Shown: piece after piece, positions 26,832-48,680 of the stretch | How the letters are laid out: each line of letters opens with the position of its first letter | Numbering within the stretch: the first letter of the stretch is position 1 | Assembly: GCA_016217965.1 (NCBI GenBank) | Contig: JACRFI010000016.1 | Coordinates: 1,837-65,836, forward strand | Reading direction: 5' to 3' | Source of the DNA: Candidatus Kaiserbacteria bacterium | Lineage (GTDB): Bacteria > Patescibacteriota > Minisyncoccia > Phycocordibacterales > UBA2100 | Length of the DNA stretch: 64,000 nucleotides | Position numbers and translations under genes: made by a program | Notes under the pieces: generated by a model | Told to the model about the DNA's origin: nothing | The model's database searches: none | What the model saw: the letters and a program-made list of their open reading frames with translations, nothing else

Positions 26832-28352
26832 GTGACCGCGGCCTCTAACGGGATGCGTTCGCACTTATTTTGGGTGGCAGTACTTGGATTCTTAGTTGGT
26901 GTTTTTGTTCGTTCGTTTCTTCCGCTTGGTTGGTACGCAGGACTCTTCGTTTTGCTTCTCGCCGGAGCACTTTTTCTCCTTACTATCGCCACGCGCCGCA
27001 CCCCGGCGATTATCCTAGGAGTTGCACTTGCTTCCAGCAGTGTAGGGGTTGTTCGTATGCACGTTTCAACTCTCGTTCTCGCCCCGGAGTTGCATGCGCA
27101 ATTGGAGAAAAAAGTCACTCTGGAGGGATATATATTCGAAGAACCGGACGCACGCGAGAGTAACGCCCGCTTTTCTATCCGGGTCGATACATTGGTAACG
27201 AGAGCAGGAACAACAGCCATTTCTGCAGGAGTTCTCGCCATTGGCCCATTGCATGCGAGTGTCGAATACGGGGATCGCGTACGTGCGGAAGGAGAATTGC
27301 GGCTTCCCGAGAGTTTTGAATCCGGCACAGGGCGTGAATTCAATTACCCCGCATACCTTAAGAAAGATGGTATTGGATACGAGCTTGCGTTTGCCCAGAT
27401 AGAAAAAATCGGCGAAGGTAGACAGAACCCGATTAAAGCCGGTGCGATTTGGATAAAACAAATATATCTCGCGGGTATTGCACTTGCGCTGCCGGAGCCT
27501 CATGCAGGACTTGCTGGCGGTATCACTGCCGGAGACAAGCGTGCGCTCGGAGGAGAACTCACAGATATATTCCGGACCGTCGGGCTTATTCATATCATCG
27601 TTCTTTCCGGCTATAACATCATGGTCGTTATCGGTTTCATTGACCGCATATTCAGTCCACGGCCCGTCGTGTTGAAAGTTTTTGGCGGCGCGCACCGGTG
27701 GGTTCGATTCTCTCTTGGCATTCTAGTCGCTATATTTTTTGCGCTCATAACTGGGCTTGCCGCCGCATCGGTGCGCGCGGCGGCGATGGCAATCATTGCA
27801 ATATTGGGGAAAGCGAGCGGCCGAACGTATCTTGCGCTCCGCGCACTGGCTCTCGTTGCATTCGGAATGGTGTTGTGGAACCCGTGGATACTCGCGTTCG
27901 ATCCTGGCTTTCAACTCTCCATTATCGCAACGTGGGGAATCATCTCTATTTCGCCTCTTATCGCTTCGCGGCTAGGTTTCGTCACGGAAAGACTGGGGCT
28001 CAGAGAGATTGCTGCGACAACAATCGGTACGCAAATTGCCGTACTACCGCTTCTGCTATATCAAAGCGGCACGTTATCCCTCGTTTCGCTGCCTGCGAAC
28101 TTGCTCACGCTCATCGTGGTTCCTTGGGCGATGCTCGCCTCTTTTATTGCAGGGGTTTTTGGAATACTTGCTGGACCGCTTGCGCCTATCGTCGGCTTTC
28201 CCGCATACGTTTTGCTCTCGTACATTCTTTTCGTCGCCGACTTGGCAGCACGCCTGCCGTTCGCGTCAATCTCGGTGGGCATCGTTGGCTTCTGGGTGTT
28301 GGTCCTGTCCTATGCATTGATAGGTGCCGTGTTTGCGAAAAGAGAAAAGTAA
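26832..28352 (+). CDS. comEC: ComEC/Rec2 competence membrane channel domain (DUF4131 + Competence), no MBL domain
   Basis: Multi-TM, 'IIVLSGYNIMVV' competence-domain signature. Confidence 0.75.
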   Translation: MTAASNGMRSHLFWVAVLGFLVGVFVRSFLPLGWYAGLFVLLLAGALFLLTIATRRTPAIILGVALASSSVGVVRMHVSTLVLAPELHAQLEKKVTLEGYIFEEPDARESNARFSIRVDTLVTRAGTTAISAGVLAIGPLHASVEYGDRVRAEGELRLPESFESGTGREFNYPAYLKKDGIGYELAFAQIEKIGEGRQNPIKAGAIWIKQIYLAGIALALPEPHAGLAGGITAGDKRALGGELTDIFRTVGLIHIIVLSGYNIMVVIGFIDRIFSPRPVVLKVFGGAHRWVRFSLGILVAIFFALITGLAAASVRAAAMAIIAILGKASGRTYLALRALALVAFGMVLWNPWILAFDPGFQLSIIATWGIISISPLIASRLGFVTERLGLREIAATTIGTQIAVLPLLLYQSGTLSLVSLPANLLTLIVVPWAMLASFIAGVFGILAGPLAPIVGFPAYVLLSYILFVADLAARLPFASISVGIVGFWVLVLSYALIGAVFAKREK

Positions 28353-29378: not shown

Positions 29379-30242
29379 ATGCAAAAAAGCACGAAAGTTC
29401 TACTCCTCGTGCTCGCGATACTTGTTCTCATCAACGCGGTTATCTGGTATGCGGTTATCCGGAATCAACGAGACGGCACGCTCACCGTTTCATTTCTCAA
29501 TATTGGGCAAGGGGACGCGACATTCATTGAATCGCCCAGTGGCGTACAGGTCCTCATCGACGGCGGCAAAGGGCGTGCGGTACTTCGTGAACTGTCTGGC
29601 GTCATGCCATGGTTCGATCGTTCAATCGATGTTGTTATCGGCACTCATCCGGACCAAGACCACATCGGCGGGCTTCCTGATGTGCTTGCACGGTATCGCG
29701 TTTCGACGGTACTACGCTCGAGCGTTTTGGACGAAGAGGGTTCGGATTTTGCCGCATTCAACGAGGCAATCGCCAAAGAAAAAGAATCCGGCGGAGTGGA
29801 AATGATAGCTGAGCGCGGACAGGTATTTGACCTTGGAGATGGGGCCACGCTCACCATTTTATTTCCTGATCGAGATGTTCCTGGACTCGAAACAAATACA
29901 GGCTCTGTCGTCGCGCGGCTCAAATACGGAAACACATCGTTCATGCTGACGGGGGATTCGCCGCAAAGTATTGAAGAATATTTAGTGCGGCTCGATGGTG
30001 AGGCACTGCACTCGAGCGTCCTCAAAGCGGGACACCATGGTTCTCGCACGTCGTCATCGCCGCTTTTCGTGGGGTTTGTGGATCCGGAATACGCCGTGTT
30101 TTCTCGCGGATGCGACAATTCATACGGTCATCCGCATGAAGAAGTCGTGGAATTATTCAAACGGTTCGAAGTGCAAACGCGTGACACCTGCGATGGCAGG
30201 GTCACGTTCGTATCAGACGGGCAGAGTGTGCGGACTAGATGA
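29379..30242 (+). CDS. MBL-fold metallo-hydrolase (ComEC C-terminal beta-lactamase-like domain as separate gene)
   Basis: N-terminal TM, 'VSFLNIGQGDA', 'GTHPDQDHIGG' HxHxDH motif. Confidence 0.75.
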   Translation: MQKSTKVLLLVLAILVLINAVIWYAVIRNQRDGTLTVSFLNIGQGDATFIESPSGVQVLIDGGKGRAVLRELSGVMPWFDRSIDVVIGTHPDQDHIGGLPDVLARYRVSTVLRSSVLDEEGSDFAAFNEAIAKEKESGGVEMIAERGQVFDLGDGATLTILFPDRDVPGLETNTGSVVARLKYGNTSFMLTGDSPQSIEEYLVRLDGEALHSSVLKAGHHGSRTSSSPLFVGFVDPEYAVFSRGCDNSYGHPHEEVVELFKRFEVQTRDTCDGRVTFVSDGQSVRTR

Positions 30243-31236: not shown

Positions 31237-31653
31237 ATGGCCACAATCAACCAATTGATCAAACGCGGCAGGCACGACAAAATACGCCGCACAAAGACCA
31301 TCGCCCTGGGGCGCGGTTTCAATACGCTCAAAAACAGGCCTACGTTCTATCCTGCGCCCTTCAAACGCGGTGTGTGCACTCGCGTCACCACGAAAACCCC
31401 TCGTAAACCGAACTCGGCTATCCGAAAGATCGCCCGCGTCCGCCTCACGAACGGCATGGAGATCACCGCATACATTCCAGGAGAGGGACACAATTTGCAG
31501 GAACACTCGGTTGTCTTGGTACGCGGAGGTCGCGTGAAGGACATCGGACTTCGATACACAATAGTACGTGGCAAGCTTGATACCGCAGGCATCGAGAAGC
31601 GCCGACGTGGCCGTTCGCTCTATGGTGCAAAGCGCCCGAAAGGAGATAAATAA
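31237..31653 (+). CDS. rpsL: 30S ribosomal protein S12 (with about 14-aa N-terminal insertion)
   Basis: 'KRGVCTRV…PNSA(I)RK…RVRLTNG…[10 protein letters not shown](V)RGGRVKD' conserved core. Confidence 0.9.
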
Positions 31654-31656
31654 TCT

Positions 31657-32118
31657 ATGAGACGCGCCGTAAAAAACAGAAAGCAACCGGAACCAGATCC
31701 TGTATACGGATCATTCAAAGTCGCGAAGCTCGTCAATTACGTGATGGAGCGCGGCAAGAAGGATACGGCGCGCAAGATTGTGTACAAAGTGATGGAAGAG
31801 TTGAAGAAAGAAGGGGACCCTGTCCTCATTCTTGAAGATGCGCTTGATAAGGCATCTCCGACGGTGGAAGTCCGCTCTCGCCGCGTTGGTGGTGCGAACT
31901 ACCAGGTTCCGCGCGAAGTTCGTCCTGAAAGGCGTCTCGCGCTCGGTATGCGTTGGATTGTTGAAGCTGCGGAATCAAAAAAAGGAGTCCCGATGGCAGA
32001 AGCGCTTCTCGTAGAATTGAAAGCGGCTCACAAAGGAGAGGGTGAGGCAGTCACGAAGAAAGAAACGACTCATAGGATGGCAGAGGCAAACAAAGCGTTT
32101 GCGCACTTTGCGTGGTAA
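31657..32118 (+). CDS. rpsG: 30S ribosomal protein S7
   Basis: S7 core 'VEVRSRRVGGANYQVP'. Confidence 0.9.
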   Translation: MRRAVKNRKQPEPDPVYGSFKVAKLVNYVMERGKKDTARKIVYKVMEELKKEGDPVLILEDALDKASPTVEVRSRRVGGANYQVPREVRPERRLALGMRWIVEAAESKKGVPMAEALLVELKAAHKGEGEAVTKKETTHRMAEANKAFAHFAW

Positions 32119-32164: not shown

Positions 32165-32482
32165 ATGGTGAAAGGCATTGCGATCATTGCCGCCGTTATT
32201 GTTGTCTCGTTTTATTTTCTTTTCCGGCCGGCCTTTATCAATGGCACGGTGCTAGAGAACGGGACGGCGATTCAGACACATTTTGGCTTCTGTTACCACC
32301 CATTAGGGATGCCGATACCGTTCAGGACGACACTCGTCAAGATACCGAAGAACGTCGAGCCTATCCAAAATGCAGATACACGCGGGACGAATTGGACATC
32401 ATGTAAGGATCGATACGGTATTGTTTTCGGGCTTCTCTTGCCGCTGCGCGAAACAATAGTGGTTGAGGTAAGATACCAGTAA
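32165..32482 (+). CDS. small hypothetical membrane protein (possibly spurious, in rpsG-fusA spacer)
   Basis: 105 aa, one TM; unusual position inside str operon. Confidence 0.25.
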   Translation: MVKGIAIIAAVIVVSFYFLFRPAFINGTVLENGTAIQTHFGFCYHPLGMPIPFRTTLVKIPKNVEPIQNADTRGTNWTSCKDRYGIVFGLLLPLRETIVVEVRYQ

Positions 32483-32598: not shown

Positions 32599-34740
32599 AT
32601 GGCAAGAGACTATCCACTAGAAAAAGTCCGTAACTTTGGGATTGTCGCGCACGTGGACGCGGGCAAAACAACCACATCCGAACGAATTCTGTACTACACC
32701 GGAGAGAGCCATAAGATCGGCGAAGTGCACGAAGGGAACACGGTCACAGACTGGATGGAACAAGAGAGGGAGCGCGGCATCACCATCACCGCCGCTGCCA
32801 TCACATGCTTCTGGAACCCAACGTACATGGGGACGGATATATCGCAGAAAGTCCGCTTCAACATTATTGATACCCCAGGACACATCGACTTTACGTCTGA
32901 AGTGAAGCGTTCGATGCGTGTTCTCGACGGAGCGGTTGTCGTGTTTGACGGCGTTGCAGGCGTTGAACCGCAGTCAGAGACGAACTGGCGCTACGCAGAA
33001 GAAGCAGAAGTGCCGAGAATTTGTTACATCAACAAATTGGACCGCACCGGAGCGTCTTTTGAGAAGTCCTATGCGTCCATTCTTGATAGGCTTTCTACCA
33101 AGGCAGTTCGCCTGCAGATCCCAATCGGCGCTGAGGGAGATTTTGAAGGTGTCGTGGATGTTTTGGAAATGAAAGCGTTCAAATTCGAAGGCGAGATGGG
33201 GAAGAATGTCGTTGCATACGATATCCCGGATAGCCTCAAGGCCGATGCGCAGAAATATCACGATGAGGTGGTAGAACGAATTGTTGAGACTGATGATGCG
33301 ATGATGACGGAATTTCTCGAGGGGAAGAAGCCGTCGCTTGAGGCGCTCAAGAAGCAATTGCGCGCTGCCGTCTGCACGAACAAGCTCTTTCCAGTCCTCA
33401 CGGGATCGTCTCTCAAGAACAAGGGGGTGCAGCGCGTTCTTGATGCGGTTGTTGACTATCTGCCGTCGCCTCTCGATCTTCCATCGGCGAAGGGAATCAA
33501 TACTGATACTGGTGCCGAAGAAACTCGCCCAGCAACCGACGATGGACCGTTTGCTGCGCTTGTATTCAAGCTCCAAGTTGACCCATTCGTCGGCGCTCTC
33601 ACATTCTTCCGCGTATATTCTGGGCATGTTGCTGCGGGGGACACTGTATACAATTCTGCGAACAACAAGAAAGAACGCATTGGGCGCATGGTGCGTTTGC
33701 AGGCGGACAAGCGCGAGGACGTGAAAGAAGTTTTTGCGGGCGAAATTGCTGCATTCGTCGGCATGAAAGAAGTAAAAATTGGAAATACGGTCTGCGACGC
33801 AGAGCATCCAATTGCGCTCGAGAAAATAATCTTCCCGGAACCCGTTGTTTCGATGCGCATCGAGCCGAAGACAAAGGCAGACCAGGAGAAAATGGGCATC
33901 GCACTCTCGCGCCTTTCGGACGAGGACCCGACATTCCGCATCAAATCTGATCCGGAGACCGGAGAGACCATCATTTCCGGAATGGGTGAGCTGCACCTAG
34001 AGATAATCGTCGATCGCATGAAGCGCGAATTTGCAGTTGAAGCGACGACAGGAAAACCGCAAGTTGCGTACCGCGAGACGATAACAGGTACGGCGGATGT
34101 CGAATACAAGCACATCAAGCAGACAGGCGGTCGCGGCCAGTACGGCCATGTGAAGATCCGCATGAAGCCGCTCGAACCAGTCGAGGAGGGAAAAAAGGTG
34201 AAGAACAACGTCGAGCGCGAAGACCATTTCGAATTCATCAACAACATCAAAGGCGGCGTCATCCCGCAGGAATACATCCAGCCCATCAAGAAGGGACTCA
34301 AAGAAGCGATGGATCGCGGCGTTCTCGCGGGCTTTCCCGTTGTTGATGTATCAGTCGATCTCTACGACGGTTCATATCACGAAGTTGACTCGTCCGAGAT
34401 CGCATTCAAACTCGCTGCCATTAATGCATTCCAAGATGCGGCTAAACTCGCGAAGCCTGCACTTCTCGAGCCGATCATGAAATTGGAAGTCGTCACGCCG
34501 GAAAAATTCATGGGCGATGTGACGGGCATGATAAATAGTAAGCGTGGTTCCATAGAGGCTATGGGCGAGCGCGGCCAAGCGCGAGTCATCACCTCCAAAG
34601 TCCCACTTTCGGAGCTTTTCGGATTCACCACACAGCTTCGCTCCGCGACCGAAGGCCGCGGTGTTCCCAACGTCGAATTCTCGCATTACGCCGTTGTACC
34701 GCGGAATGTGGCAGACGAAGTTATTGCAAGCAGAAAGTAG
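32599..34740 (+). CDS. fusA: elongation factor G
   Basis: G-domain 'AHVDAGKTT', 'DTPGH', full five-domain EF-G length 713 aa. Confidence 0.95.
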   Translation: MARDYPLEKVRNFGIVAHVDAGKTTTSERILYYTGESHKIGEVHEGNTVTDWMEQERERGITITAAAITCFWNPTYMGTDISQKVRFNIIDTPGHIDFTSEVKRSMRVLDGAVVVFDGVAGVEPQSETNWRYAEEAEVPRICYINKLDRTGASFEKSYASILDRLSTKAVRLQIPIGAEGDFEGVVDVLEMKAFKFEGEMGKNVVAYDIPDSLKADAQKYHDEVVERIVETDDAMMTEFLEGKKPSLEALKKQLRAAVCTNKLFPVLTGSSLKNKGVQRVLDAVVDYLPSPLDLPSAKGINTDTGAEETRPATDDGPFAALVFKLQVDPFVGALTFFRVYSGHVAAGDTVYNSANNKKERIGRMVRLQADKREDVKEVFAGEIAAFVGMKEVKIGNTVCDAEHPIALEKIIFPEPVVSMRIEPKTKADQEKMGIALSRLSDEDPTFRIKSDPETGETIISGMGELHLEIIVDRMKREFAVEATTGKPQVAYRETITGTADVEYKHIKQTGGRGQYGHVKIRMKPLEPVEEGKKVKNNVEREDHFEFINNIKGGVIPQEYIQPIKKGLKEAMDRGVLAGFPVVDVSVDLYDGSYHEVDSSEIAFKLAAINAFQDAAKLAKPALLEPIMKLEVVTPEKFMGDVTGMINSKRGSIEAMGERGQARVITSKVPLSELFGFTTQLRSATEGRGVPNVEFSHYAVVPRNVADEVIASRK

Positions 34741-34784
34741 GTTGCGCTGGCAAAAATCCACAGTTATCGCTCAAATAGACTTGC

Positions 34785-34809
34785 ATTATCGCTCATAATG
34801 AGCGATAAT
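34785..34809. promoter_or_regulatory. perfect 12+1+12 palindrome ATTATCGCTCAT-a-ATGAGCGATAAT (operator-like) upstream of fic-like gene
   Basis: Half-site 'TTATCGCTCA' also at 34764-34774 and as 'ATGAGCGATA' overlapping the ATG at 34820. Confidence 0.5.
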
Positions 34810-34819
34810 GTGATTTAAT

Positions 34820-35875
34820 ATGAGCGATAGTAATCTCAGTCAAAGACAGGCTTCCATACTTGCCAGTATGGGACTTGATACAGACTATTCAGCAGAAAGC
34901 TTGGCGAACTTGTTCGACATTGCTCCTGCCCCAGCGACATTGCGCAGAGACATGCAAAAATTGGAATTACACGGCTACGTAACTCGGCGAGGAGAAAAAA
35001 GGGGAAGGAAATATGCAAAGACGGAACTTGGTGCCCTCTTGAGCCCCTTGGATGCACACGCGTACTTCCTCAAAGAAACAGATGTGCGCCGCGGATTAAA
35101 GACGTATCGTCACGGACTCTGGAATGCCGTACCTGAATCTCTTTTCACCACAGGTGAGCGAGCCGCATTCGCTGCTGCTACCGACATCTATCACGCGCGA
35201 TCGCGCGATATTTCCGAGGTCGTGCGTGCGAAGGAGCTTGAACGCTTCGTGATCGAGCTTTCGTGGAAATCTTCGAGGATCGAAGGCAATACGTATACGC
35301 TTCTTGATACCGAGCGCCTTCTGCGTGAGGGAGTGGAGGCACCCGGGCATGGGAAAGGCGAGGCTATGATGATTCTCAACCACAAGAAAGCGTTCCAGTA
35401 TATCTTGGAATCAAAAAATAAGCGTGAGTTTGTGAATAAGCATTTTGTCGAGGATGTGCATGGCATTCTTGTCGAGAATCTCGGCGTATCACGAGGATTC
35501 AGAAAGGGCGTTGTCGGGGTCACCGGCTCTTCGTATCGGCCTCTCGACATTCCCGCGCAACTGGAAGAAGAGACTGGCGTCTTGTGCCAGGCTGCGGCAC
35601 AGATCAAAGACGCGTATTCGCAAGCACTTCTCATGCTCGTTGGAATAAGTTATATACAGCCTTTTGAAGATGGCAATAAGCGCACCGCGCGACTCATTGC
35701 AAATGCGGTTCTCATTGCGCACGAGAAGGCGCCGCTCTCATATCGAAGCGTCGATGAAACGCTCTATCGCGAAAGTATGCTTACGTTCTACGAACAACTC
35801 TCCATCGTCCCAATGAAAAAGATATTCTCTGATCAATATCTTTTCGCCTGCGAACAGTATCTGAAAAGTTCGTAA
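34820..35875 (+). CDS. Fic/Doc-family protein with N-terminal wHTH-like region and degenerate motif [12 protein letters not shown]
   Basis: Fic/Doc core '[20 protein letters not shown]' (canonical HxFx[DE]GN[GK]R; His replaced by Gln). Confidence 0.7.
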
Positions 35876-35933
35876 AAACGGGTTTTCCGTCAAACACTCC
35901 AGTAGAATCTGCCAGCTTCAAGAGCCTGACCAT

Positions 35934-36081
35934 TGCCAAAGTGCCGCTTTCGGAGCTTTTCGGATTCACCACACAGCTTCGCTCCGCGACCGAAGGCCGC
36001 GCCGTCCCGAACCTTGAGTTCTCGCACTACGTCGTAGTACCACGTAATGTGCAGGAGGAGATAATTGCGTCTCGTAAGTAA
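35934..36081 (+). repeat. fusA 3'-end remnant copy 1 (encodes …[47 protein letters not shown])
   Basis: About 56 nt identical to 34601-34656 of resident fusA then diverged; ends with in-frame stop. Confidence 0.85.
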
Positions 36082-36129
36082 TTCCCAAATACCTGTCCCC
36101 ACCGCGGCCGCCCTGAGCGAAGTCGAAGG

Positions 36130-38412
36130 GTGGCCGCGTGTCATGATGTGTGCATGAACAAAAGCGTTGTAGCGTTTGTGGCAGTCGTCGCGTCGTTTTT
36201 CGTCCCCTTTTTCGCCTCGGCACAAGTTCCTACACCGTCTGCCGGAGGACCGTATTCTGGCGGCGTAAATCCAACCATCAGTTCCCAAAGTGGTACTTCC
36301 GTCGGCGTGTCTATCTCTTCTGTCGGGTCGAACACGTCTATTTCACAATCTTTTGTATGTCCGACGTTGATTCGCACCCTTGTCCGCGGTTCTCGAGGCG
36401 GTGATGTCGCTGGAGTACAAAATTTTCTCATCGCCCAAAAAGATTTGGCGGCAGGCAACAACACCGGCTACTTCGGTACTCTCACTGAAACGGCAGTGAA
36501 ATCGTTCCAGCGAAGAAATAATATAGTCTCAAGTGGCACACCAGGAACGACGGGGTATGGCCTCGTCGGCGCAAAGACACGTGCGGCGATCCAAAGAGCA
36601 TGTGCTGGATCAATGGCCGCACCAACCAATTCGTACTCGTCTCCATCACTAGGTTCGAATTCAGAAATAGACAAACTCCTCGCGCAGATTCAATCGCTTC
36701 AGGCGCAAATGAACCAGGAAGCTAACAAGAGCACTGGAAATTCTTCGGGGACAACGTATGTGCAAGGCTCGTACGCACAAACAAACGCGCCTGTGTATTC
36801 GGAAACGAATTATTACAATCAGGGATCATATACACCCACAGACGACCAGGTCCGACCAGCTTCACCACCGTACTATGGGGTTAACTATTTCGCATCTGGA
36901 TACGGGAATTTCCTCACGGACCAGTTCGATGTGTCAAGGACGCGCATCCAGAACGACATCGGACTCATGCAAAGCATGGGAATCAACGTCGTACGTATAA
37001 GCGTCGCCGGTTTCGCCAACGGGCTTGTGCCATGGACCTACAACCAACCGCGGGGACGAGAATATTTCGACACAGCAAATTGGGAGCTTGCCGGAAACAA
37101 CCTTGCAAAGTTGATCAAGCAATTTAAAGCAGCCCGCATAAAAGTTATTGTGGATTTTGTATCGATAAATTATTTCTTGTTCGCACCGAGCGCGACTGAA
37201 CTCGCCATCCACCCAGTAAGCCAGGCATGCAAAGACGGGTTTGCGTCCGGTTCGATGGGCGTATGGTGGCAGTGCCGGTATCCGAACAGATGGGATGATT
37301 TTGTATGGGACTATACGACCTGGGTGAACGGCATCGTGTGGCTCGTCGAGAATGATTCCGAGGCAGCGTCAAACGTCCTCTACTACGATCCGATCGGAGA
37401 ACTCCAATTTTCGGACCGGACAGGCACCGACATGAAGGCATTCGCGAACATCATTATCGCAAACAACAACATTCCGGCAGGGAAACTTGGCATATCGGTA
37501 CTTAATCCTGAATCGACCACTCCCGCCTCAATCGCGCTTCCGAACCTTAAAACTCTTCTCGATGCGGCAGGCAAAAAACTTTCGTTCATTGATGTGCATT
37601 GTTATCCTGGTATCTCTTGTGCGTTTGGTAGCCAGACTGTTGCCCAGTGGTTTACGGACGCATATACAAATGCGCGGAGATCATTTCCCGCATCTGAAAC
37701 AAAGTTTGTCGTGGGAGAATGGGGCTCCAATTATGATGGTGGAAAAGGCTTGGGCCAAGCGAATTACGATGCACAAGTTGTCAATTGGGCGAAATCCAAC
37801 GGCGATGTCACGGCGCTCGTGCACTGGAATCTCTATGATGACAATCCGAGTTACAACGAATATCACATCGGAGTTGCGCCGACGGCCGGCGTTGCGCAAG
37901 GTACACGAAATACCTATATGGTCCTCGGGACGATGCGCGGGGACTTAATCGATGGTGATTTTGAAAGTGGTATTTCGAAGTGGTTTAACGGCGGCAGTGG
38001 GTCGAACCTAAAGCAGATGCCCATCGAAGCAGTGACGGGTTCGTACTATGGACGCATGCAGGTGACGGCACCCGGACAAAATTGGTTCTGCACGCCAAAT
38101 TTCGTGCTCGCCAATGGCACGCATGTCGCGACCGGCGGTTTCATTCGGACAGCACTTGCAAATGTGACGCTTTCGACCCGATATTTCGATTCAAATTGGA
38201 AACTGATCGGGCAAGATGACATCACGCTTACACAACCAGCGGCTTGGCAGTGGCGGCAAATACAAGAGCAATCGCTGTCAAAACGCGCTACTACGTGGAC
38301 GGGTGCCCCTTATGCTGCACAGGTTTGCTTCGTTTTGAACGGTCCAGCTGGCACATCCGCTACAAATCCGCAGTATCTTGATTTGGATTCGATCACGGTG
38401 CACGATTATTAG
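36130..38412 (+). CDS. secreted peptidoglycan-binding-domain protein with GH5-like TIM-barrel glycoside hydrolase domain
   Basis: Probable true start ATG 36154 (MNKSVVAF…, signal peptide); PG_binding_1-like 'GDVAGVQNFLIAQKDL…GYFGTLTETAVKSFQ'; 'GINVVRISV' and 'VVGEWGSNYDGG' GH5-like strands. Confidence 0.6.
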   Translation: MAACHDVCMNKSVVAFVAVVASFFVPFFASAQVPTPSAGGPYSGGVNPTISSQSGTSVGVSISSVGSNTSISQSFVCPTLIRTLVRGSRGGDVAGVQNFLIAQKDLAAGNNTGYFGTLTETAVKSFQRRNNIVSSGTPGTTGYGLVGAKTRAAIQRACAGSMAAPTNSYSSPSLGSNSEIDKLLAQIQSLQAQMNQEANKSTGNSSGTTYVQGSYAQTNAPVYSETNYYNQGSYTPTDDQVRPASPPYYGVNYFASGYGNFLTDQFDVSRTRIQNDIGLMQSMGINVVRISVAGFANGLVPWTYNQPRGREYFDTANWELAGNNLAKLIKQFKAARIKVIVDFVSINYFLFAPSATELAIHPVSQACKDGFASGSMGVWWQCRYPNRWDDFVWDYTTWVNGIVWLVENDSEAASNVLYYDPIGELQFSDRTGTDMKAFANIIIANNNIPAGKLGISVLNPESTTPASIALPNLKTLLDAAGKKLSFIDVHCYPGISCAFGSQTVAQWFTDAYTNARRSFPASETKFVVGEWGSNYDGGKGLGQANYDAQVVNWAKSNGDVTALVHWNLYDDNPSYNEYHIGVAPTAGVAQGTRNTYMVLGTMRGDLIDGDFESGISKWFNGGSGSNLKQMPIEAVTGSYYGRMQVTAPGQNWFCTPNFVLANGTHVATGGFIRTALANVTLSTRYFDSNWKLIGQDDITLTQPAAWQWRQIQEQSLSKRATTWTGAPYAAQVCFVLNGPAGTSATNPQYLDLDSITVHDY

Positions 38413-38419: not shown

Positions 38420-38485
38420 TTCGTTCTCGCACTATGCGATTGTCCCAAAAACGTTGCAGATGAAGTGATCGCCTCGCGCAAATAG
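38420..38485 (+). repeat. fusA 3'-end remnant copy 2 (…FSHYAIVPKNVADEVIASRK*, 1-nt frameshift)
   Basis: Matches last about 22 codons of fusA. Confidence 0.75.
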
Positions 38486-38574: not shown

Positions 38575-39858
38575 ATGAAAAACATCCCACGGGTTGGTGT
38601 GCTTATCAGTGCTATTCTCCTTGCGCCTGCGTTCGCGGCAGCTCAAGACGCGCTCGGAAGTCCTATGCCTTCAATGGGTCCGGGAATAATTTGCCAAGCG
38701 GAAATGAATGCCGCCATTGCGGTCGGTCTGCAAAATAGGGAAAAGGCCGAGGTAAAGGCGCTCGATGCGTGCCTAAAAAATAACGCGTCGACACTACCCA
38801 TGCCCTCAATGACCTCTGAGGCAAGCGACTCTGGCAGCGTAACATCGGGTATTACCCCGAACACGAATGGCAGCGGCGCTTCATGCCCCAAAATTCTTCG
38901 TACGCTTTTCGTCGGCAGCACTGGGGATGACGTGGTGGCATTGCAGGTATTCCTTATTGCGCAAGGCGATCTTGCCGCAGGCAATACCACCGGCTACTTT
39001 GGCGTTCTTACGGAAGCGGCGGTAAAAGCATTTCAGTCGGCGCATGGTATAGAGAACGCTGGCATGGTGGGTCCGAAGACTCGCGCGGCGATCGCGCAAA
39101 TATGCGGCGGTACCGTTTCCACGAACACCCCTTCCTCTAGCGGCGGTTCAACGGGCAATCAATCGCTCATTGATTCGCTTCTACAGCAGATAAAAGTTCT
39201 GCAGGAGCAGATAAAGAATATCTCAGGGAACACAAACACAAACACAAATACGAATACAACGTCAACCAACACCAATACGACATCAACCAATATCAACACA
39301 ACTTCTTCGACTGCCGCGACTCCGCAAACTTTCGACTACATGGCGTCATTCCATTCCGGCCCGCAATCTGGGGGCGACCAGAGCCTGGCGCCGTACTTCG
39401 GCCAGAACCCGTCGGGACCATGGTGGTATGGGTATGCGGATTCCGTAACCGGCGCGACGAAGTTCATGTCGTGGGACGGGACCGTCCCCTCATGGATCGG
39501 CGGCTATGGAGGATTCCCGCGTCTCTACAACTGGGGTGGGTACGTCTACGGCTCGTCGGCAATAATCGTTTGGGTGGCACCGCGTGCGGGTACCGTCACG
39601 ATAGCCGGAAGTGTCTCGCGACAAGGGATTGGCGGGGCTGATGCGACGTGCTCAGGCGCGACGCCGATCGTCGCGTATGTCTATCAGGATGGAAAGGCTT
39701 TGTGGTCGGCGAGCATGATGCCGGGAGATGCTGGCAAAGCGTATTCACTCTCCGGCACAGTGAATCAGGGCAGCAACGTGTCGTTCATCATGCAGCCGGC
39801 AGGTGCAAGCCCGGCCTGCAACATCGTGTACTGGAATCCGACTGTCGTGCTTAAATAA
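38575..39858 (+). CDS. secreted peptidoglycan-binding-domain protein with (TN)n linker
   Basis: Signal peptide 'MKNIPRVGVLISAILLAPAFAAA', PG_binding_1-like 'DDVVALQVFLIAQGDL…GYFGVLTEAAVKAFQ', 'NTNTNTNTNTTSTNTNTTSTN' linker, C-terminal beta domain. Confidence 0.65.
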   Translation: MKNIPRVGVLISAILLAPAFAAAQDALGSPMPSMGPGIICQAEMNAAIAVGLQNREKAEVKALDACLKNNASTLPMPSMTSEASDSGSVTSGITPNTNGSGASCPKILRTLFVGSTGDDVVALQVFLIAQGDLAAGNTTGYFGVLTEAAVKAFQSAHGIENAGMVGPKTRAAIAQICGGTVSTNTPSSSGGSTGNQSLIDSLLQQIKVLQEQIKNISGNTNTNTNTNTTSTNTNTTSTNINTTSSTAATPQTFDYMASFHSGPQSGGDQSLAPYFGQNPSGPWWYGYADSVTGATKFMSWDGTVPSWIGGYGGFPRLYNWGGYVYGSSAIIVWVAPRAGTVTIAGSVSRQGIGGADATCSGATPIVAYVYQDGKALWSASMMPGDAGKAYSLSGTVNQGSNVSFIMQPAGASPACNIVYWNPTVVLK

Positions 39859-39879: not shown

Positions 39880-39945
39880 CCAAAGTTTGATGCTGGGTGC
39901 TGAATTTGGAATTCTCTCACTACGCTATCGTCCCCAGAAATGCCT
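39880..39945 (+). repeat. fusA 3'-end remnant copy 3 (internally deleted; …EFSHYAIVPRN…)
   Basis: 'ccaaagt' junction plus 'gaattctctcactacgctatcgtccccagaaatg'. Confidence 0.65.
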
Positions 39946-40044: not shown

Positions 40045-40314
40045 ATGAGCAAGATAACCATGCCTACATTTGCGGCGAGCGAGGCGAAGAATAACTTCGG
40101 GAGGCTTATCGATGCCGCGCAGCGCTCGCCTGTCGCGATCAAGCGGCGCGGCCGCTCCGTTGCGTTCGTCATCTCGCCGTCAGACATGGAGACGATTGAG
40201 GATCTATGGCTGGGTATGCAAGCGCATAAAGCGATGCGGCGAGGTAAATTCTTGAGCGCTGAGGAAACGAAGAAATATATGGACGGTGTGCTGAAGCACC
40301 ATGCTCGACGTTAG
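40045..40314 (+). CDS. Phd/YefM-family antitoxin
   Basis: 'MPTFAASEAKNNFGRLIDAAQRSPVAIKRRGRSVAFVISPSDMETIEDL' YefM fold signature; overlaps toxin gene by 14 nt. Confidence 0.7.
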   Translation: MSKITMPTFAASEAKNNFGRLIDAAQRSPVAIKRRGRSVAFVISPSDMETIEDLWLGMQAHKAMRRGKFLSAEETKKYMDGVLKHHARR

Positions 40315-40576
40315 GATACTCGACGAGGCGCAGGAAATCCTGGATGCGCTATCAGAAAAACATCGGCATCAAATTGTCAAAAAGATCGCACTGCTCGCGC
40401 AGCAGCCATATCACCCGCGTTCGAAACAGTTGGAAGGATATGCGCCGCTTCGACGCATGTCTTCTGGAGAATATCGCATTGTGTATTTCATTGAGGGCAA
40501 AGTTCTGAAAGTTCCGCTTATCGATAAGCGAGGGGATAACAAAGTATACCGACGACTTAAGCAGTTATTCGGATGA
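40301..40576 (+). CDS. RelE/ParE-family toxin
   Basis: 91 aa, 'PLRRMSSGEYRIVYFIEGKVLKV' RelE/ParE C-terminal core. Confidence 0.75.
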   Translation: MLDVRILDEAQEILDALSEKHRHQIVKKIALLAQQPYHPRSKQLEGYAPLRRMSSGEYRIVYFIEGKVLKVPLIDKRGDNKVYRRLKQLFG

Positions 40577-40605
40577 TAAATTGCTTTGAACGTCGTTATC
40601 GAAAA

Positions 40606-40773
40606 AAAGCCTGCTCTCCGAAATGTTCGGATTTACAACACAATTACGGTCGTTGACGGAGGGAAGATCTGTCCCAAACCTCGAGTTTTCTCACTACCCC
40701 AGTAGGTGATTGTACTCAATCAGCTGTTGTCCCTCGAAATGTTGCGGATGAAGTTATTGCGGCGAGGAAATAG
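40606..40773 (+). repeat. fusA 3'-end remnant copy 4 (…[26 protein letters not shown]-[28-bp insert]-VVPRNVADEVIAARK*)
   Basis: Translated similarity to EF-G C-terminus ending in in-frame TAG. Confidence 0.8.
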
Positions 40774-40785: not shown

Positions 40786-40836
40786 CACACACTGCCGCGC
40801 TTAATGCGCGGCAGTGTGTCATGATTACCGCATTAC
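40786..40836 (+). promoter_or_regulatory. 14-bp perfect hairpin (CACACACTGCCGCGC-ttaat-GCGCGGCAGTGTGT) followed by GTGTCATGATTACCGCATTAC box
   Basis: Same architecture at 20008-20048, 36103-36147, 42595-42636 upstream of paralogous genes. Confidence 0.55.
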
Positions 40837-42577
40837 ACATCACCCATCTCTATTCATGCTAAAAAAAGTCGCATTCAGCAGCATCGGATTACTCCTCCTA
40901 ATCTCTCCGTTCGCAGCATCTGCAGATCTCCTTAGCGACCTCCAAGCGCAGATACAAGCACTTCTTGCGCAGATTGCGGCATTGCAGGGGACATCAATGA
41001 TCCCTGACTCGGACACTCCGACAGAGCATCCGACATCATCATGCCCACATCTGACAGTCGCTCTCCAACGGGGCAGTCGCGATGCAAATACGGGAGGACA
41101 AGTCTCAGAACTTCAAATATTTCTCGCAAATCGTTACGGTCTCAACGACGATGATATCGTGAGCGGATTCTTCGGCGCAATGACAGAGAAATACGTCATC
41201 AAATTCCAACAAGAACAAGGACTTCCCGTGTTCGGCCTCGTAGGTCCTATGACCAGGGCGAAGATCGCAGAGGTGTGCGGGGGCATCATCTCTCCGTCGA
41301 ATGCCGCATCCGAGGCAAACCCGGTACTTGTCTTTCCGCCTCGTAGAATCACGAGCGACACAAACAGCTTCTCCAACAGCTTCTCCGCGTCGCCGATGTC
41401 AGGAAGTGCGCCACTCACCGTAACGTTCTCCATGACTCAATACGGGGCGAGATCCCTACTGATAGATTTCGGAGACGGTGCGGTACAAAAAACCGACGAC
41501 TCTTGCCTTGTCGGCCCGGATTGTAAAGAACCGTACGTACGTTCGCACACTTACATCTCACCAGGCACGTATATTGTCCGACTCTCAAATGCATCCGTCT
41601 GCGACGCGCCACCCGGGGTACTGTGTTCACTCGCCCCCGATCAGATTGTCGGTACGGTGACGATCACCGTCACGGACGGGACCCGCAAATGTGGTGTAAA
41701 TTCATTTAAAGTAGTGAACCAATGTGGCACAAGCGAATACAGAAATGCGTACTTCCAGTGTTATGACGGGTATGAGCAGACCATCGGTGAGAGCAGTTCG
41801 TGCAAACCGCCCTCGGTATGGGAAGAATATGCCCGCGATGCGTGTGCCAAACATTGTTCGAACACTGCAAGCAGTATTACCGTCACATCACCCAATGGCG
41901 GAGAGCAGATCGAAATCGGACAGCCACATAAAATTACTTGGAAACAAGTCGGGCTCTCGAATGTATCCATTGCACTGTACAGAGACGATCAAGTGAAACA
42001 GTGGATTGCGCGAGATATTAGCTTGGAGAAAGATGCCGTTGACACATATGCGTACGTCTGGACACCGGCGCAAACCGACACTAACATTAATGCGTTCACA
42101 ATCTACATCACCGGCCCAAAAGCCGACGGCACAGGCTCCATCGACGACAAAAGTGACGCTCCATTCAGTTTTGCCAGTGATGCAAGCGGAGTGTGTCAAG
42201 TTGTTGACCTCTACGCCACGCAAGTCCCGGGGTATGTCTACTCTGATCTCTTTATGGTCGTGCGCGGACTGCCGACAGGATCTGGTCAGGTTAGTATCAC
42301 CGGAGCAGATTCATGGAACAATTTGATGTTCTCTTCCCAGGGGCTTGATTCTGCGGGAAATCTCCTCTTGCAAGCAAATCAAACGATTAATTCGACGGGT
42401 GTCTCGTATATTCTTGAGCGCGAGAATGCCATCACGCCAATTTCCTACGGCGGTGTATCAATATCGTGTCAATCTATTTCTGGCACGACCGCATCCGCAC
42501 AGAGTACGCAATTAGCATCAGCACTCGTTGCACTCGAATCAGCCCTCAAAGCAATGCTGAAATTGTTGGGGCAATAG
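40814..42577 (+). CDS. secreted peptidoglycan-binding-domain protein with PKD-like domains
   Basis: Probable true start ATG 40856 (MLKKVAFSS… signal peptide); coiled coil; 'GQVSELQIFLANRYGL…GFFGAMTEKYVIKFQ'; 'FGDGAVQKTDDSC' PKD-like. Confidence 0.65.
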   Translation: MCHDYRITHHPSLFMLKKVAFSSIGLLLLISPFAASADLLSDLQAQIQALLAQIAALQGTSMIPDSDTPTEHPTSSCPHLTVALQRGSRDANTGGQVSELQIFLANRYGLNDDDIVSGFFGAMTEKYVIKFQQEQGLPVFGLVGPMTRAKIAEVCGGIISPSNAASEANPVLVFPPRRITSDTNSFSNSFSASPMSGSAPLTVTFSMTQYGARSLLIDFGDGAVQKTDDSCLVGPDCKEPYVRSHTYISPGTYIVRLSNASVCDAPPGVLCSLAPDQIVGTVTITVTDGTRKCGVNSFKVVNQCGTSEYRNAYFQCYDGYEQTIGESSSCKPPSVWEEYARDACAKHCSNTASSITVTSPNGGEQIEIGQPHKITWKQVGLSNVSIALYRDDQVKQWIARDISLEKDAVDTYAYVWTPAQTDTNINAFTIYITGPKADGTGSIDDKSDAPFSFASDASGVCQVVDLYATQVPGYVYSDLFMVVRGLPTGSGQVSITGADSWNNLMFSSQGLDSAGNLLLQANQTINSTGVSYILERENAITPISYGGVSISCQSISGTTASAQSTQLASALVALESALKAMLKLLGQ

Positions 42578-43336: not shown

Positions 43337-44857
43337 GTGTCCATGCTTTCGCGCGCACGTGCATTTGGGAGGATGATGCTTCGTATCCTGTTACTCTTAG
43401 TAATATTTGGCGTGTTCGCGCCGAACTTTACATTCGCGCAGTCCTGTTCCATTTCAATTTCGCCCCAGACGGGCGTTGCGGGTTCGGGAAGGACGTTGTA
43501 TTGGTCCGTCAGCGATTATGTCGGGACGCTCGACATCAGTGGTATCGGACGTGTGGTTACAACATGTTATGCATCGGGAGAGGGTAACGGCGGTTGTACC
43601 ATGCCCCCAGTTTCCGGATCTCTCGGTATTTCGCCGTCCTATTCCACAACCTACACTGGTACAGCAGTAGACGTCTGGGGGACGGATACCTACTGCTCCG
43701 ACACCGCATACGCCACGCCCGCATACTCCCAGGCTAGTTACTACGCCCAATCCTACTACCAATCCTCATACTACAGCCCCGCCTCCTGCTCCGTCTCCCT
43801 CTCGCCAAACCCCAAATCATACGCCGGCAGCGCCACGCTCTCATGGTCCTCCTCGCAGGCACACTACTGGGTCTACATCAATAACGTCGGCTATGTGGGA
43901 GGGAGCGGCTCCATTTCAGTCTCACCATCATCAAGCACCGACTATTCCTGCTACGCGAATGGCTACGGCGGCTCTGACGGCTGGCACAGCTACACACTCA
44001 CGGTGAATCCGCCTGCCAACTGTTCCTTCAACGGCTCGACAGTCAATCACGGCAGTTCAGTCACGGCATACCAAGCAGCCACCGTCCCATACGGGCAGTC
44101 ATGTGCTTCACAATCACAATCACGCAGCTGCTCAAACGGCACGCTCTCGGGCACATACCAGTACGAAAGCTGTACCGTCGACAACCCAGCGCCTACTTGC
44201 TCTATTGCTGTCGCACCAACCACCATCACATCAGGAGAGTCTTCAACACTCACCTGGTCCTCATCAAACGCTACGACTTGCACCGGCACCAATTTCTCAA
44301 CTGGTGGTGCGACATCAGGCTCCACATCGGTCTCTCCTTCATCTAGCACCAACTACTCTGCAAGTTGCACTGGTACTGGTGGCACGACAGCATGCACTGA
44401 CACGAGCAGTGGAGGAGGGGGCGACACCACAGCCACTCTGTCAGTTGCTTGCACCGAAAGCTGGGCATGCACCGGTTCTCCAAGCAACACCATCACACAC
44501 ACCTTAGCGAATTGCTCGACAGAAACCGTTGACACCTGCGTCACGCCAGAGTTTTGTACCACAGGCTCCGCCACCTGCCTCTACAACGCGGTCTCAGGCT
44601 CCATCAGCGCTTCCCCCCGCTTGGTACGATCCGGCGCCACCACACAAGTCTCGTGGAGCACTGACGATGCGTCCTCGTGCACCGTCACAGGCAATGGAGA
44701 CACGTGGACCGGCACCACAGGCTCACAAACATCAAGCCCGATCACCGAACTCACCACCTACACCATCCATTGTGATGATGGTGATCCTGACAGTACACAA
44801 GATGATTTCACAGACAGGGTGATTGTGGTGAGGTTGCCGGGGTGGTTGGAGTTATAA
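43337..44857 (+). CDS. secreted Cys-rich Ig-like repeat surface protein (paralog of 47073 gene)
   Basis: Signal peptide, repeated 'C…SLSPNPK…TLSWSS…', Ser/Thr/Gly-rich; last about 360 aa about 85-90% identical to 47073 product; C-terminal 'VRLPGWLEL'. Confidence 0.6.
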   Translation: MSMLSRARAFGRMMLRILLLLVIFGVFAPNFTFAQSCSISISPQTGVAGSGRTLYWSVSDYVGTLDISGIGRVVTTCYASGEGNGGCTMPPVSGSLGISPSYSTTYTGTAVDVWGTDTYCSDTAYATPAYSQASYYAQSYYQSSYYSPASCSVSLSPNPKSYAGSATLSWSSSQAHYWVYINNVGYVGGSGSISVSPSSSTDYSCYANGYGGSDGWHSYTLTVNPPANCSFNGSTVNHGSSVTAYQAATVPYGQSCASQSQSRSCSNGTLSGTYQYESCTVDNPAPTCSIAVAPTTITSGESSTLTWSSSNATTCTGTNFSTGGATSGSTSVSPSSSTNYSASCTGTGGTTACTDTSSGGGGDTTATLSVACTESWACTGSPSNTITHTLANCSTETVDTCVTPEFCTTGSATCLYNAVSGSISASPRLVRSGATTQVSWSTDDASSCTVTGNGDTWTGTTGSQTSSPITELTTYTIHCDDGDPDSTQDDFTDRVIVVRLPGWLEL

Positions 44858-47072: not shown

Positions 47073-48680
47073 ATGTCGGGGACGCGTTCCTATGTCGTCG
47101 TTCTTACGTTTGTGGCGCTCTCTATCGCCCCGTATTTTGCGCACGCTGCGTCGCTGCCGGGCGGTGTCTTCAACCTCATCATGCGCTCCGACGGCCTGTG
47201 CATGGACGTGTACGCCAACCAGGCCGTGAGCGGCCAAAACATCGACAACTGGCACTGCAACGGTACGACAGCTCAGACGTTCCGCGCCGAGTCGCTCGGC
47301 GGCGATGTGTACCGCATCATCAACACAAATTCCGGCATGTGCGTGGACGTCTACGGAAACGACACCAGTGAAGGAGCAGATGTGGTCCAAGCGTGGTGCA
47401 ATGGGTCCAGCGCGCAATCGTTCCAGGCTGCTGATGCTGGCAGCGGGTATGTGTATCTCGTCAACACCAATAGCGGCAAGTGCGTAGGATTCGGCGGCAC
47501 GTTCCAGTGGCAAAATACCGACCAAGGCAATTGGCAGTGGGTTCCGGACGTGCGGATGTATTCGTGTAATGGCGCCGCCGACCGGCAGTGGTATCCGGCA
47601 GCGCCCGCATCGTGTTCCATCTCCCTCTCACCGAATCCGAAAGACTATGCCGCAGCGGCGACGCTTTCCTGGTCAAGCTCATACGCAAACTCCTGGCTCT
47701 ACATCAATAACGTGGGATACGTGGGGGCTTCCGGCGCAGTTACCGTCGCGCCAACTTCAAATACCGACTATTCATGCGTCGCCTACGGTTCCGGCGGCAG
47801 CGACGGCTGGCACAGCGCAATCTTGTACGTGAATGCTCCTTCCAATTGCACCGCGCCGTGGGGAAGCGCAGTCTCGCACGGCTCGTCTGTCATCGCATAC
47901 CAAGCAGCAACGGTGCCATATGGTTCCTTGTGCGTTTCCCAAACACGCTCTTGTTCTAACGGAAGCCTCAGCGACTCATACGAGTATCAATCCTGCTCCG
48001 TGGATAATCCTGCACCCACCTGCTCCATCTCTGTCGCTCCAACCACAATTACCTCAGGAGAATCATCAACACTCACCTGGTCCTCATCAAATGCCACGAC
48101 CTGTACCGGTACCAATTTCTCCACAGGAGGCGCCACCTCCGGCTCGACATCAGTATCTCCCTCATCCAGCACCAACTACTCTGCAAGTTGCACAGGTACC
48201 GGGGGCACAACAGCATGCACTGACACGAGCAGTGGAGGAGGAGGCGACACCACCGCCACTCTGTCAGTTGCATGCACTGAAAGTTGGGCTTGCACCGGCG
48301 CAGGCGGAAGCACCATCACACACACCTTAGCGAATTGCTCAACAGAAACCATCGACACCTGCGTCAGCCCTGAGTTCTGCACCACAGGCTCTGCCCTCTG
48401 CCTCTACGACGCCGTCACCGGTTCCATCACTGCTTCCCCCCGCCTCGTCACCTCAGGCAAGACGACAACCGTCTCCTGGTCTACTGACGATGCCGTCTCC
48501 TGCACTGTCACAGGAAACGGAGACACCTGGATTGGTACCTCAGGCTCACAGACATCAAGCCCCATCACCGAACTCACTACGTACACCATCCGCTGTGATG
48601 ATGGCGACCCTGATACCACACAAGACGATTTCACAGACAAAGTGCATATCGTGCGGTTGCCGGGGTGGTTGGAGTTATAA
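47073..48680 (+). CDS. secreted ricin-B-lectin + Ig-like repeat surface protein
   Basis: Signal peptide; beta-trefoil repeats with Q-x-W ('AQTF','AQSF','RQWY') and 'CMDVY/CVDVY'; C-terminal about 360 aa paralogous to 43337 gene. Confidence 0.7.
   Translation: MSGTRSYVVVLTFVALSIAPYFAHAASLPGGVFNLIMRSDGLCMDVYANQAVSGQNIDNWHCNGTTAQTFRAESLGGDVYRIINTNSGMCVDVYGNDTSEGADVVQAWCNGSSAQSFQAADAGSGYVYLVNTNSGKCVGFGGTFQWQNTDQGNWQWVPDVRMYSCNGAADRQWYPAAPASCSISLSPNPKDYAAAATLSWSSSYANSWLYINNVGYVGASGAVTVAPTSNTDYSCVAYGSGGSDGWHSAILYVNAPSNCTAPWGSAVSHGSSVIAYQAATVPYGSLCVSQTRSCSNGSLSDSYEYQSCSVDNPAPTCSISVAPTTITSGESSTLTWSSSNATTCTGTNFSTGGATSGSTSVSPSSSTNYSASCTGTGGTTACTDTSSGGGGDTTATLSVACTESWACTGAGGSTITHTLANCSTETIDTCVSPEFCTTGSALCLYDAVTGSITASPRLVTSGKTTTVSWSTDDAVSCTVTGNGDTWIGTSGSQTSSPITELTTYTIRCDDGDPDTTQDDFTDKVHIVRLPGWLEL

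Follow-up and report, generated by a model that had tools for sequence, protein, structure and literature searches.

We analyzed a stretch of 64,000 nucleotides from a Candidatus Kaiserbacteria genome (contig JACRFI010000016.1, assembly GCA_016217965.1; hereafter "the window") and focused on the first gene after fusA, which encodes a winged helix-turn-helix (wHTH) fused to a Fic fold whose catalytic histidine is replaced by glutamine (here referred to as "Gln-Fic"). Taken together, the results point to a self-repressed and self-contained module of the toxin-antitoxin (TA) or defence type, in which Gln-Fic would be either a ligand-gated winged-helix partner or a non-canonical transferase, and we give this whole package a probability of roughly 0.55. 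Any specific physiological role is put forward more tentatively. The coordinates of all features are collected in Table 1.

The protein matches the Pfam family Fic/DOC (PF02661) over residues 207–298 with 43.2 bits, against a gathering cut-off of 24 bits, and therefore belongs to this superfamily. In phmmer alignments to FICD and 7xux, Gln280 falls exactly on the catalytic histidine of HPFxDGNGRxxR, and no alternative Fic motif with a histidine was found anywhere in the 351-aa protein, either in the sequence or in the alignments. An earlier sequence-only reading of this DNA had claimed such a replacement in a Fic/Doc-family protein and had proposed alignment to Fic/Doc profiles as the check; the claim was borne out by this comparison with hidden Markov models (HMMs) and PDB entries. 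Compared with canonical Fic AMPylases, the GNG anion nest is also lost (Lys287, in GNKR), and the final arginine of the motif is retained as R291, which is invariant in the family. The N-terminal wHTH noticed in the same reading is supported by a match to HTH_DeoR (E 4.8e-4, just under its cut-off) and by an AlphaFold model, which was computed from an alignment of 31 sequences and is of high confidence (pLDDT 90.3, pTM 0.91). In this model, the winged helix is formed by helices 8–16, 25–29 and 38–50 and strands 54–57 and 64–67, that is, by three helices and two strands over residues 8–67 with pLDDT about 90, and is followed by an all-helical Fic core.

We then compared the model with known structures. 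The top Foldseek matches were class II Fic proteins, namely human FICD/HYPE (E 2e-9, TM 0.60), followed by Bacteroides BT_2513, Clostridioides CdFic and Shewanella SoFic (TM about 0.6) and by Coxiella Fic2. Moreover, SSRIEGN is aligned by phmmer with the inhibitory helix of FICD and conforms to the cis-helix motif of class II. On the predicted structure, the protein belongs to class II Fic, its inhibitory helix being in cis, and is not a Doc, despite the Doc-like lysine in its motif; the earlier description as a Doc-type motif thus holds for the lysine and does not extend to the fold. In fact, besides lacking the histidine, the protein departs from Doc toxins in the arginine at the last motif position, in its 351 residues with wHTH and inhibitory helix, and in having no partner gene. 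It is not a member of the mobile mystery protein B family either, since the corresponding HMM (TIGR02613) gave 16.4 bits against a cut-off of 124.4. The public annotation (P0001) begins the Fic protein 16 codons further downstream, with 335 aa; we preferred the start at 34820, because the invariant residues R9 and Q10 and the operator-encoded MSD precede the annotated start.

Among the 120 best homologues (48–100% identity), 119 carry glutamine at the histidine position and all 120 keep SSxIEGN. We further searched 1.84 billion cluster representatives, which gave 2987 matches at E≤1e-3, of which 1131 reached E≤1e-10 and 290 reached E≤1e-30, and inspected the motif in the best 150. Glutamine was found in all of the 131 representatives with a detectable motif. 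Ten full-length representatives had been missed by the motif pattern; on inspection, seven of them have glutamine variants (QPFEDCNKR, QPFNDWNKR, QxFEDLNKR and others) and no motif was found in the other three (P0330, P0365 and P0385). The first glycine of the anion nest varies in the family (G/V/L/C/W). Homologues from cultured bacteria also carry the glutamine, including those on plasmids of Bacteroides finegoldii, Aromatoleum EbN1 (QPFEDVNKRVSR) and Thiothrix (QAFIDVNKRTSR) and a Helicobacter prophage protein without HTH (QFFEDCNKRTAR); the relatives in Streptococcus satellite phages are of the ordinary histidine type. As read from these sequences, the glutamine is a trait of the family and not a lesion of a single gene, and the comparison shows a family under strong purifying selection, in which the glutamine is fixed.

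The glutamine replacement itself is already on record and is not a new feature. An in-silico survey by Khater and Mohanty in 2015 described a Fic/Doc "clade D2", made up of 45 sequences that share the motif Qx[F/Y]x[D/E][G/V]NKR, in which glutamine stands in place of the essential histidine, and proposed no function for it (PMC4454073). The motif here, QPFEDGNKR, fits this pattern, as do QPFEDVNKR and QAFIDVNKR among the variants of the family. Searches of the literature on the exact motif and on Fic proteins in the candidate phyla radiation (CPR) returned nothing specific beyond this survey. By these searches, four points appear to be new: the assignment of the glutamine clade to the class II fold, the fused winged helix with a conserved and covarying promoter operator, the size of the family and its concentration in CPR, and its behaviour as a mobile cassette, including the relic array anchored at fusA.

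Two of the plasmid homologues, those of Aromatoleum EbN1 plasmid 2 (L082) and Thiothrix (L083), are 465 and 429 aa long, with an extra C-terminal region. Repeated motifs lie upstream of these proteobacterial genes, GCGCGCCACATAAAA twice and repeats of GGCNGATAAC (L082 2400–2520; L083 2840–2955), and a partial integrase gene adjoins the Aromatoleum gene.

The start of the gene is covered by a symmetric operator. Its 9-mer half-site, TATCGCTCA, occurs four times in the window, always inside one 66-bp stretch and with a spacing of 22 bp between half-sites of the same orientation, where 0.53 copies are expected and none of 100 shuffles reached four; no further half-site was found elsewhere in the window, including the right end of the cassette. 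The perfect 25-bp palindrome with two further half-sites, one of them over the ATG, which had been pointed out from the sequence before, is therefore far above chance. In the putative promoter, the palindrome takes up both the spacer and the –10 hexamer, and the ATG follows 10 nt past the –10, so a transcript from this promoter would be nearly leaderless.

We compared homologous loci in genome assemblies, 80 in all and nearly every one of CPR, and found the same architecture within the 90 nt upstream of the gene, with a –35-like TTG, a palindrome with the –10 in its right arm, and a further half-site at or just before the ATG; the TTG stands ahead of the palindrome in most homologues. We looked for the palindrome in these loci, as the sequence-only reading had also proposed, and with a minimum arm length of 10 nt and no more than one mismatch allowed we detected it in 66 of 78 loci; of random windows taken within these loci, 30 of 560 had one. 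Looser criteria raised the number to 77 of 79. The half-sites can be divided into three types, each paired with its own recognition helix: TCGCTCA with xATLRRD (14 loci, the window included), TCGTATCA with SL(V/I)T(V/I)KR(D/E) (55 loci) and TCGTGCCA with SERT(L/I)KRD (4 loci). Such covariation is what direct recognition predicts, and the autoregulation suggested earlier is therefore well supported; of the regulatory or immunity function that the sequence-only reading had considered for the Fic fold, it is self-regulation to which this support extends. An operator that lies over its own promoter, is kept with the gene and covaries with the HTH is what characterizes an autoregulated repressor with its operator, the binding here being predicted, and the Fic protein very likely represses its own promoter. 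As RNA, in a transcript reading through from fusA, the nested repeats would fold with –37.7 kcal/mol (z = –5). The element may thus also shield the Fic gene from upstream transcription, since this fold would bury the ATG. An Rfam search across the region gave no family match and a single sub-threshold chance match.

The second line of evidence concerns how the gene reached its place. The end of fusA recurs after the Fic gene, as a direct repeat of 34595–34727 and 35936–36068 with 84% identity and a period of 1341 bp. In a relative (L085, GCA_964623775.1) whose EF-G is 91% identical, a PG_binding_1 gene comes 62 bp after fusA, and the fusA end with its downstream DNA aligns with 35924–36222 of the window, that is, with the displaced fusA remnant R1 and the DNA following it. 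L085 therefore represents the empty site, and the insert runs from 34741 to about 35923, containing the operator and promoter and the Fic open reading frame (ORF) only. The earlier statement that the gene is the first cassette after fusA thus proved stronger than it was made, as the gene is flanked by the fusA 3' end on one side and by a displaced copy of this end on the other.

Over 147 nt, the fusA end in place (copy A) and R1 show 29 differences, of which 19 fall on third codon positions; the codon changes are synonymous in 14 cases and non-synonymous in 7. Random mutation of equal extent gave 18.8 non-synonymous codons on average and never fewer than 11 in 5000 trials (P<2e-4). Moreover, the C-termini of both copies, one of which is NVADEVIASRK, are common natural EF-G alleles among 119 relatives. 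Mostly synonymous differences and natural alleles indicate that the two copies evolved as functional fusA ends in different lineages, and on the same grounds we rejected R1 as an in-situ duplicate decaying neutrally. One of the copies would have come with the cassette or with a recombined segment of fusA. A repeat of 146–158 bp, an empty site in L085 and an insert without mobility gene are the marks of "insertion with long target duplication" (PMC2853133), and we hold it highly probable that the gene is an imported cassette of this kind. It is not an integron cassette: the ends are not conserved, no integrase was found between fusA and tuf, and the separators are fusA remnants and not attC sites.

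The remnants R1–R4, which lie between the Fic gene, three PG_binding_1 genes and a pair of TA genes, have in sequence the look of an array built by successive insertions at a single gene end without an integrase. As R1 is the most intact of the remnants, the Fic cassette fits the most recent of the insertions between fusA and tuf, which number at least four. Because unrelated cargos left the same scar, the mechanism of insertion is not encoded by the Fic gene. L085 holds one fusA relic of its own (9015–9098). The Pfam and HMM scans gave no integrase between fusA and tuf, the usual downstream partner of fusA, and tuf 3' remnants were looked for and none was found.

At the other loci, we found no conserved neighbour and no conserved partner or antitoxin gene, the best neighbour family being present in only 5 of 78 loci. 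Recurrent neighbours, assigned by reading their sequences, are AbiEii/AbiEi-like proteins, AAA ATPases, RelE-like and GIY-YIG proteins and another Fic. Nucleotide homology between related cassettes ends about 53–72 nt before the ATG (in one of four pairs as far as about 129 nt) and 0–48 nt past the stop, and a search across homologous loci found no conserved cassette termini or inverted repeats. Flanking direct repeats are present in 15 of the 65 loci with both flanks, against 3 of 216 control intervals at the same score threshold. They are 21–96 bp long and 74–100% identical, and as their sequences are unrelated from locus to locus, they derive from the targets. Among these targets are a probable metG, at its 5' end (L045, 81 bp, 100% identical), another gene, likewise at its 5' end (L039, 59 bp, 100% identical), the 3' ends of several genes, and terminator hairpins. 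Two more loci involve fusA. In L093, where the Fic protein is 67% identical, the contig begins within a fusA 3' end (...NVQEDIVASRK*), after which come the Fic gene and PG_binding genes; in L072, from Andersenbacteria, the gene lies one ORF downstream of fusA. The comparison of loci shows the Fic gene to be a solitary mobile unit.

Two Paceibacterota loci are of a different kind, with complex arrays of short direct and inverted repeats around the Fic gene which are not simple target duplications (L009, 5238–5537 and 7099–7296; L012, 5384–5647 and 7051–7414).

We propose the following explanation. A horizontally acquired solitary cassette would encode a class II Gln-Fic fold that carries a winged helix at its N-terminus. 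Winged-helix dimers would bind the palindrome in the –35/–10 spacer and –10 hexamer of their own promoter as well as the half-sites on either side, including the one over the ATG, and the gene would thereby be tightly self-repressed and insulated from fusA read-through. By established Fic biochemistry, neither the canonical, histidine-dependent AMPylation of a protein hydroxyl nor its phosphorylation in the manner of Doc is expected from a Fic domain without general base. The conservation of F, D, N, K, R and R, together with that of the inhibitory glutamate, suggests a phosphate or nucleotide pocket that is still functional. The domain may then be a nucleotide-binding, auto-inhibited effector or sensor which couples the state of a ligand to DNA binding, or else a catalyst of base-independent transfer. 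Both possibilities would suit a single-chain module of the TA or defence type.

As for its arrival, the cassette most probably inserted directly after the fusA stop with a long target duplication, and in doing so brought or left another natural allele of this gene end. The route is probably DNA uptake and then homology-facilitated illegitimate recombination anchored in the conserved fusA, which is our guess: one end of the incoming DNA would be anchored by fusA homology, and the other would be joined by illegitimate recombination shortly before the stop codon of fusA in the recipient. Such recombination has been described (PMC3240628), natural competence has been demonstrated in Patescibacteria (PMC10633639), ComEC domains are encoded in the window, and insertion with long target duplication is known for restriction-modification (RM) genes in mostly competent bacteria (PMC2853133).

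Several points weigh against this explanation. The –35 on the plus strand matches only three of six positions and fails the four-of-six rule of a simple scan. The palindrome was also flagged as a terminator-like hairpin and has a strong RNA fold, so that it could act in part through RNA. A fusA remnant was found in only one of the three close relatives inspected. Residual catalysis without the histidine is conceivable, and residual activity of the His-to-Ala mutant of IbpA has been cited (PMC4454073). Finally, the putative role in defence or addiction rests on context, namely mobility and the adjoining TA and Abi-type genes, and on weak PADLOC similarity; the matches to PDC-S04 (E 4e-16) and SoFic (E 1e-13) are partial, cover the Fic core only and reflect generic Fic homology.

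The best surviving alternative is that Gln-Fic is an active single-chain toxin or abortive-infection enzyme, catalytic through another base or a base-free nucleophile (a phosphate or the end of a nucleic acid, for instance); the cis glutamate helix and self-repression would keep it in check until phage attack or gene loss releases it. The invariance of the active-site-like residues and the inhibitory glutamate is in keeping with such an enzyme, as are the solitary mobile cassette among TA and Abi-type genes, the homologue in a Helicobacter prophage, and the similarity to the two PADLOC entries, both of them single-gene Fic candidates, and to the phage family phrog_11900. We nevertheless regard it as a doubtful, if possible, reading: histidine is the general base in all characterized Fic and Doc enzymes (PMC4454073), the PADLOC matches span no more than the generic core, and a first anion-nest glycine that varies as it does here would be odd for a nucleotide-transfer site.

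It is unlikely that the protein is a housekeeping transcription factor, that is, a ligand-sensing regulator of host genes in which the Fic domain is merely the sensor. A wHTH with a ligand-type domain in a confidently predicted structure would suit such a regulator, and the activity of Coxiella Fic2 is DNA-dependent (PMC10628234). However, all four half-sites in the 64 kb are at its own promoter, the gene is sporadic, with a different context in every genome and no conserved neighbour, and the specificity of the operator diversifies with the protein, as for a self-contained module.

Two further alternatives concern the insertion. A tyrosine or serine integrase acting in trans, with the fusA 3' end as attB in the manner of tandem islands at tRNA genes, would account for the repeated use of one gene end and for the similar positions, about 50 codons from the fusA stop, at which R1 and R4 begin; we consider it improbable, as no integrase lies between fusA and tuf, the other remnants differ in length (20–28 codons), and the same Fic cassette elsewhere duplicates many unrelated targets. 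Less probable still is a self-mobilising element in which the wHTH-Fic(Gln) protein is the recombinase and the operator its end-recognition site. The cassette carries no other cargo, flanking target duplications are enriched, and the protein presumably binds at one cassette end; but unrelated cassettes (the PG_binding genes and Phd/ParE) left fusA remnants of the same type, the ends are not conserved, the right one lacking a half-site, and the divergence of copy A and R1 is that of donor and recipient alleles and not of a fresh staggered cut. The last alternative, a dead Fic toxin on its way to loss with the palindrome as fusA terminator, fits the missing histidine and the terminator-like score of the palindrome, but is effectively refuted by conservation at 48–73% identity with an invariant glutamine over about 290 clusters; a palindrome which travels with the gene through unrelated contexts and covaries with the HTH, and its AT-rich stem (5 GC pairs of 15), also speak against it.

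We also compared the preferred reading, a self-repressed Gln-Fic module inserted with long target duplication, with known systems. With the class II Fic proteins, Gln-Fic shares not only the predicted fold but also the N-terminal cis inhibitory helix, the final arginine of the motif and the flap region; it differs in glutamine for histidine and lysine for the second glycine of GNGR, with no AMPylation expected, and in the position of its wHTH, which is N-terminal here and C-terminal (or replaced by TPR) there. The motif is that of clade D2, and the G/V alternation of that clade is seen in our plasmid homologues too. However, the clade D2 sequences are mostly single-domain and were placed with Doc, whereas we assign a class II fold, and the family here is far larger, concentrated in CPR, and equipped with a fused wHTH and a conserved operator. 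With Doc of the Phd/Doc system, it has in common the lysine in GNKR, the logic of an autoregulated selfish module and the association with translation-factor loci, but Doc has about 130 aa, lacks the inhibitory helix, flap and final arginine, keeps the histidine and needs a separate antitoxin. The mobile mystery proteins A and B (TIGR02612 and TIGR02613) likewise combine HTH and Fic in a small sporadic unit, with two genes there and one here. Coxiella burnetii Fic2 (8cil; PMC10628234) also joins Fic to a DNA-binding domain and couples activity to DNA, but it has the canonical histidine motif, is an active (de)AMPylase and a secreted effector, and its structural similarity to our protein is weak. 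The long-target-duplication insertions of RM genes (Nobusato 2000; Furuta 2010, PMC2853133) resemble the present one in the lack of a mobility gene, in direct repeats of >30 bp which are single-copy in the empty-site genome and often overlap a gene 3' end, and in competent hosts. The differences are that the cargo is Fic, together with PG-binding and TA genes, in CPR, that a serial array has formed at one gene end, and that the repeat copies are different natural alleles.

Fic enzymology is built on the catalytic histidine, and here hundreds of clusters keep all but the histidine, plus the inhibitory glutamate. Such conservation implies an activity of the Fic fold that is still unexplored, be it a sensor, a pseudo-enzyme or a new chemistry, and the conserved and covarying operator offers a directly testable handle. 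The gene is therefore a good experimental target from a large and barely studied family, though not unprecedented in kind. The interval between fusA and tuf, in turn, records serial gene acquisition beside an essential and highly conserved gene, with the relics as time-stamps. If general, it would show how CPR bacteria, with their reduced genomes and natural competence, take up accessory genes in the absence of dedicated integrases. In its widest form, the proposal would be that Gln-Fic cassettes are widespread one-protein, self-repressed selfish or defence modules with histidine-independent Fic activity, either ligand-gated DNA binding or transfer to a base-free nucleophile, spread in CPR by recombinase-free capture at conserved gene ends, with the fusA 3' anchor and relic-separated arrays; this we offer as speculation only.

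Table 1. Coordinates of the Gln-Fic cassette and of the surrounding features in the window.
Feature	Position	Strand	Basis or remark
rpsL	31237–31653		str-operon region
rpsG	31657–32118		str-operon region
105-aa ORF without Pfam match	32165–32482		between rpsG and fusA
fusA (EF-G, 713 aa), intact	32599–34740	+	Pfam EF-G domains
Copy A of the duplicated target, last ~146–158 nt of fusA	from ~34582	+	direct repeat
Inserted cassette (probable), ~1183 bp: 79-bp promoter/operator leader, ORF and ~48-bp tail	34741–35923	+	empty-site relative L085
Four-half-site symmetric operator	34764–34829	.	outer half-sites and palindrome
Outer half-site TTATCGCTCA	34764–34773	.	read from sequence
Putative promoter: –35-like TTGCAT (34781–34786), 17-bp spacer, –10 GATAAT (34804–34809)	34781–34809	+	read from sequence
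Perfect 25-bp palindrome ATTATCGCTCATaATGAGCGATAAT	34785–34809	.	read from sequence
Outer half-site ATGAGCGATA, over the ATG	34820–34829	.	read from sequence
wHTH-Fic(Gln) gene	34820–35875	+	ATG start, 351 aa
Winged helix-turn-helix, residues ~5–75, recognition helix region PATLRRD	34832–35044	+	HMM, helix comparison, AlphaFold
SSRIEGN, class II inhibitory-helix motif (S/T)xxxE(G/N), residues 151–157	35270–35290	+	Glu155 invariant
Fic motif QPFEDGNKRxxR, Gln280 for catalytic His, Lys287 for second Gly	35657–35692	+	phmmer alignment, homologue comparison
R1, displaced fusA 3' remnant, 48 in-frame codons and stop	35924–36081	+	direct repeat, empty-site alignment
PG_binding gene	36130–38412		followed by R2
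R2, older fusA 3' remnant, 1-nt frameshift	38424–38485	+	
PG_binding gene	38575–39858		followed by R3
R3, fusA 3' remnant fragment	39897–39941	+	
Phd/YefM antitoxin gene (89 aa)	40045–40314	+	overlapping genes, cassette between R3 and R4
ParE/RelE-type toxin gene (91 aa)	40301–40576	+	overlaps the Phd/YefM gene
R4, fusA 3' remnant with internal insertion	40596–40773	+	ahead of PG_binding gene
PG_binding gene	40814–42577		after R4
tuf (EF-Tu)	48959–50158	+	end of ~14-kb variable interval

In L085, several small unassigned ORFs likewise lie between rpsG and fusA, so that this junction is also variable. Directly after tuf, the window carries an AbrB/SpoVT-like antitoxin gene (50299–50529) and then a canonical Doc of 133 aa with intact histidine (50531–50932; HVFIDGNKRTSF). 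The known target of Doc is EF-Tu. A Doc gene adjoining tuf, whose product Doc targets, is striking beside a Gln-Fic gene after fusA, yet this is probably a coincidence. The only transposase, an insertion-sequence-type DDE enzyme with rve core and HTH, lies beyond tuf (51479–52726), and near it there is a pair of 154-nt direct repeats, 1.8 kb apart and with 88% identity (52828–52981 and 54620–54773). The ComEC domains are found not in one polypeptide but in two ORFs about 1 kb apart, one with the Competence and DUF4131 domains (26832–28352) and the other with the metallo-beta-lactamase domain (29379–30242). Repeats of 0.2–0.3 kb, 3.8 kb apart and with 71–80% identity, were also found (43778–44413 and 47604–48236). 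They lie within an ORF without Pfam match (43337–44857) and an ORF with ricin-type lectin domains (47073–48680), which are probably paralogous surface proteins.

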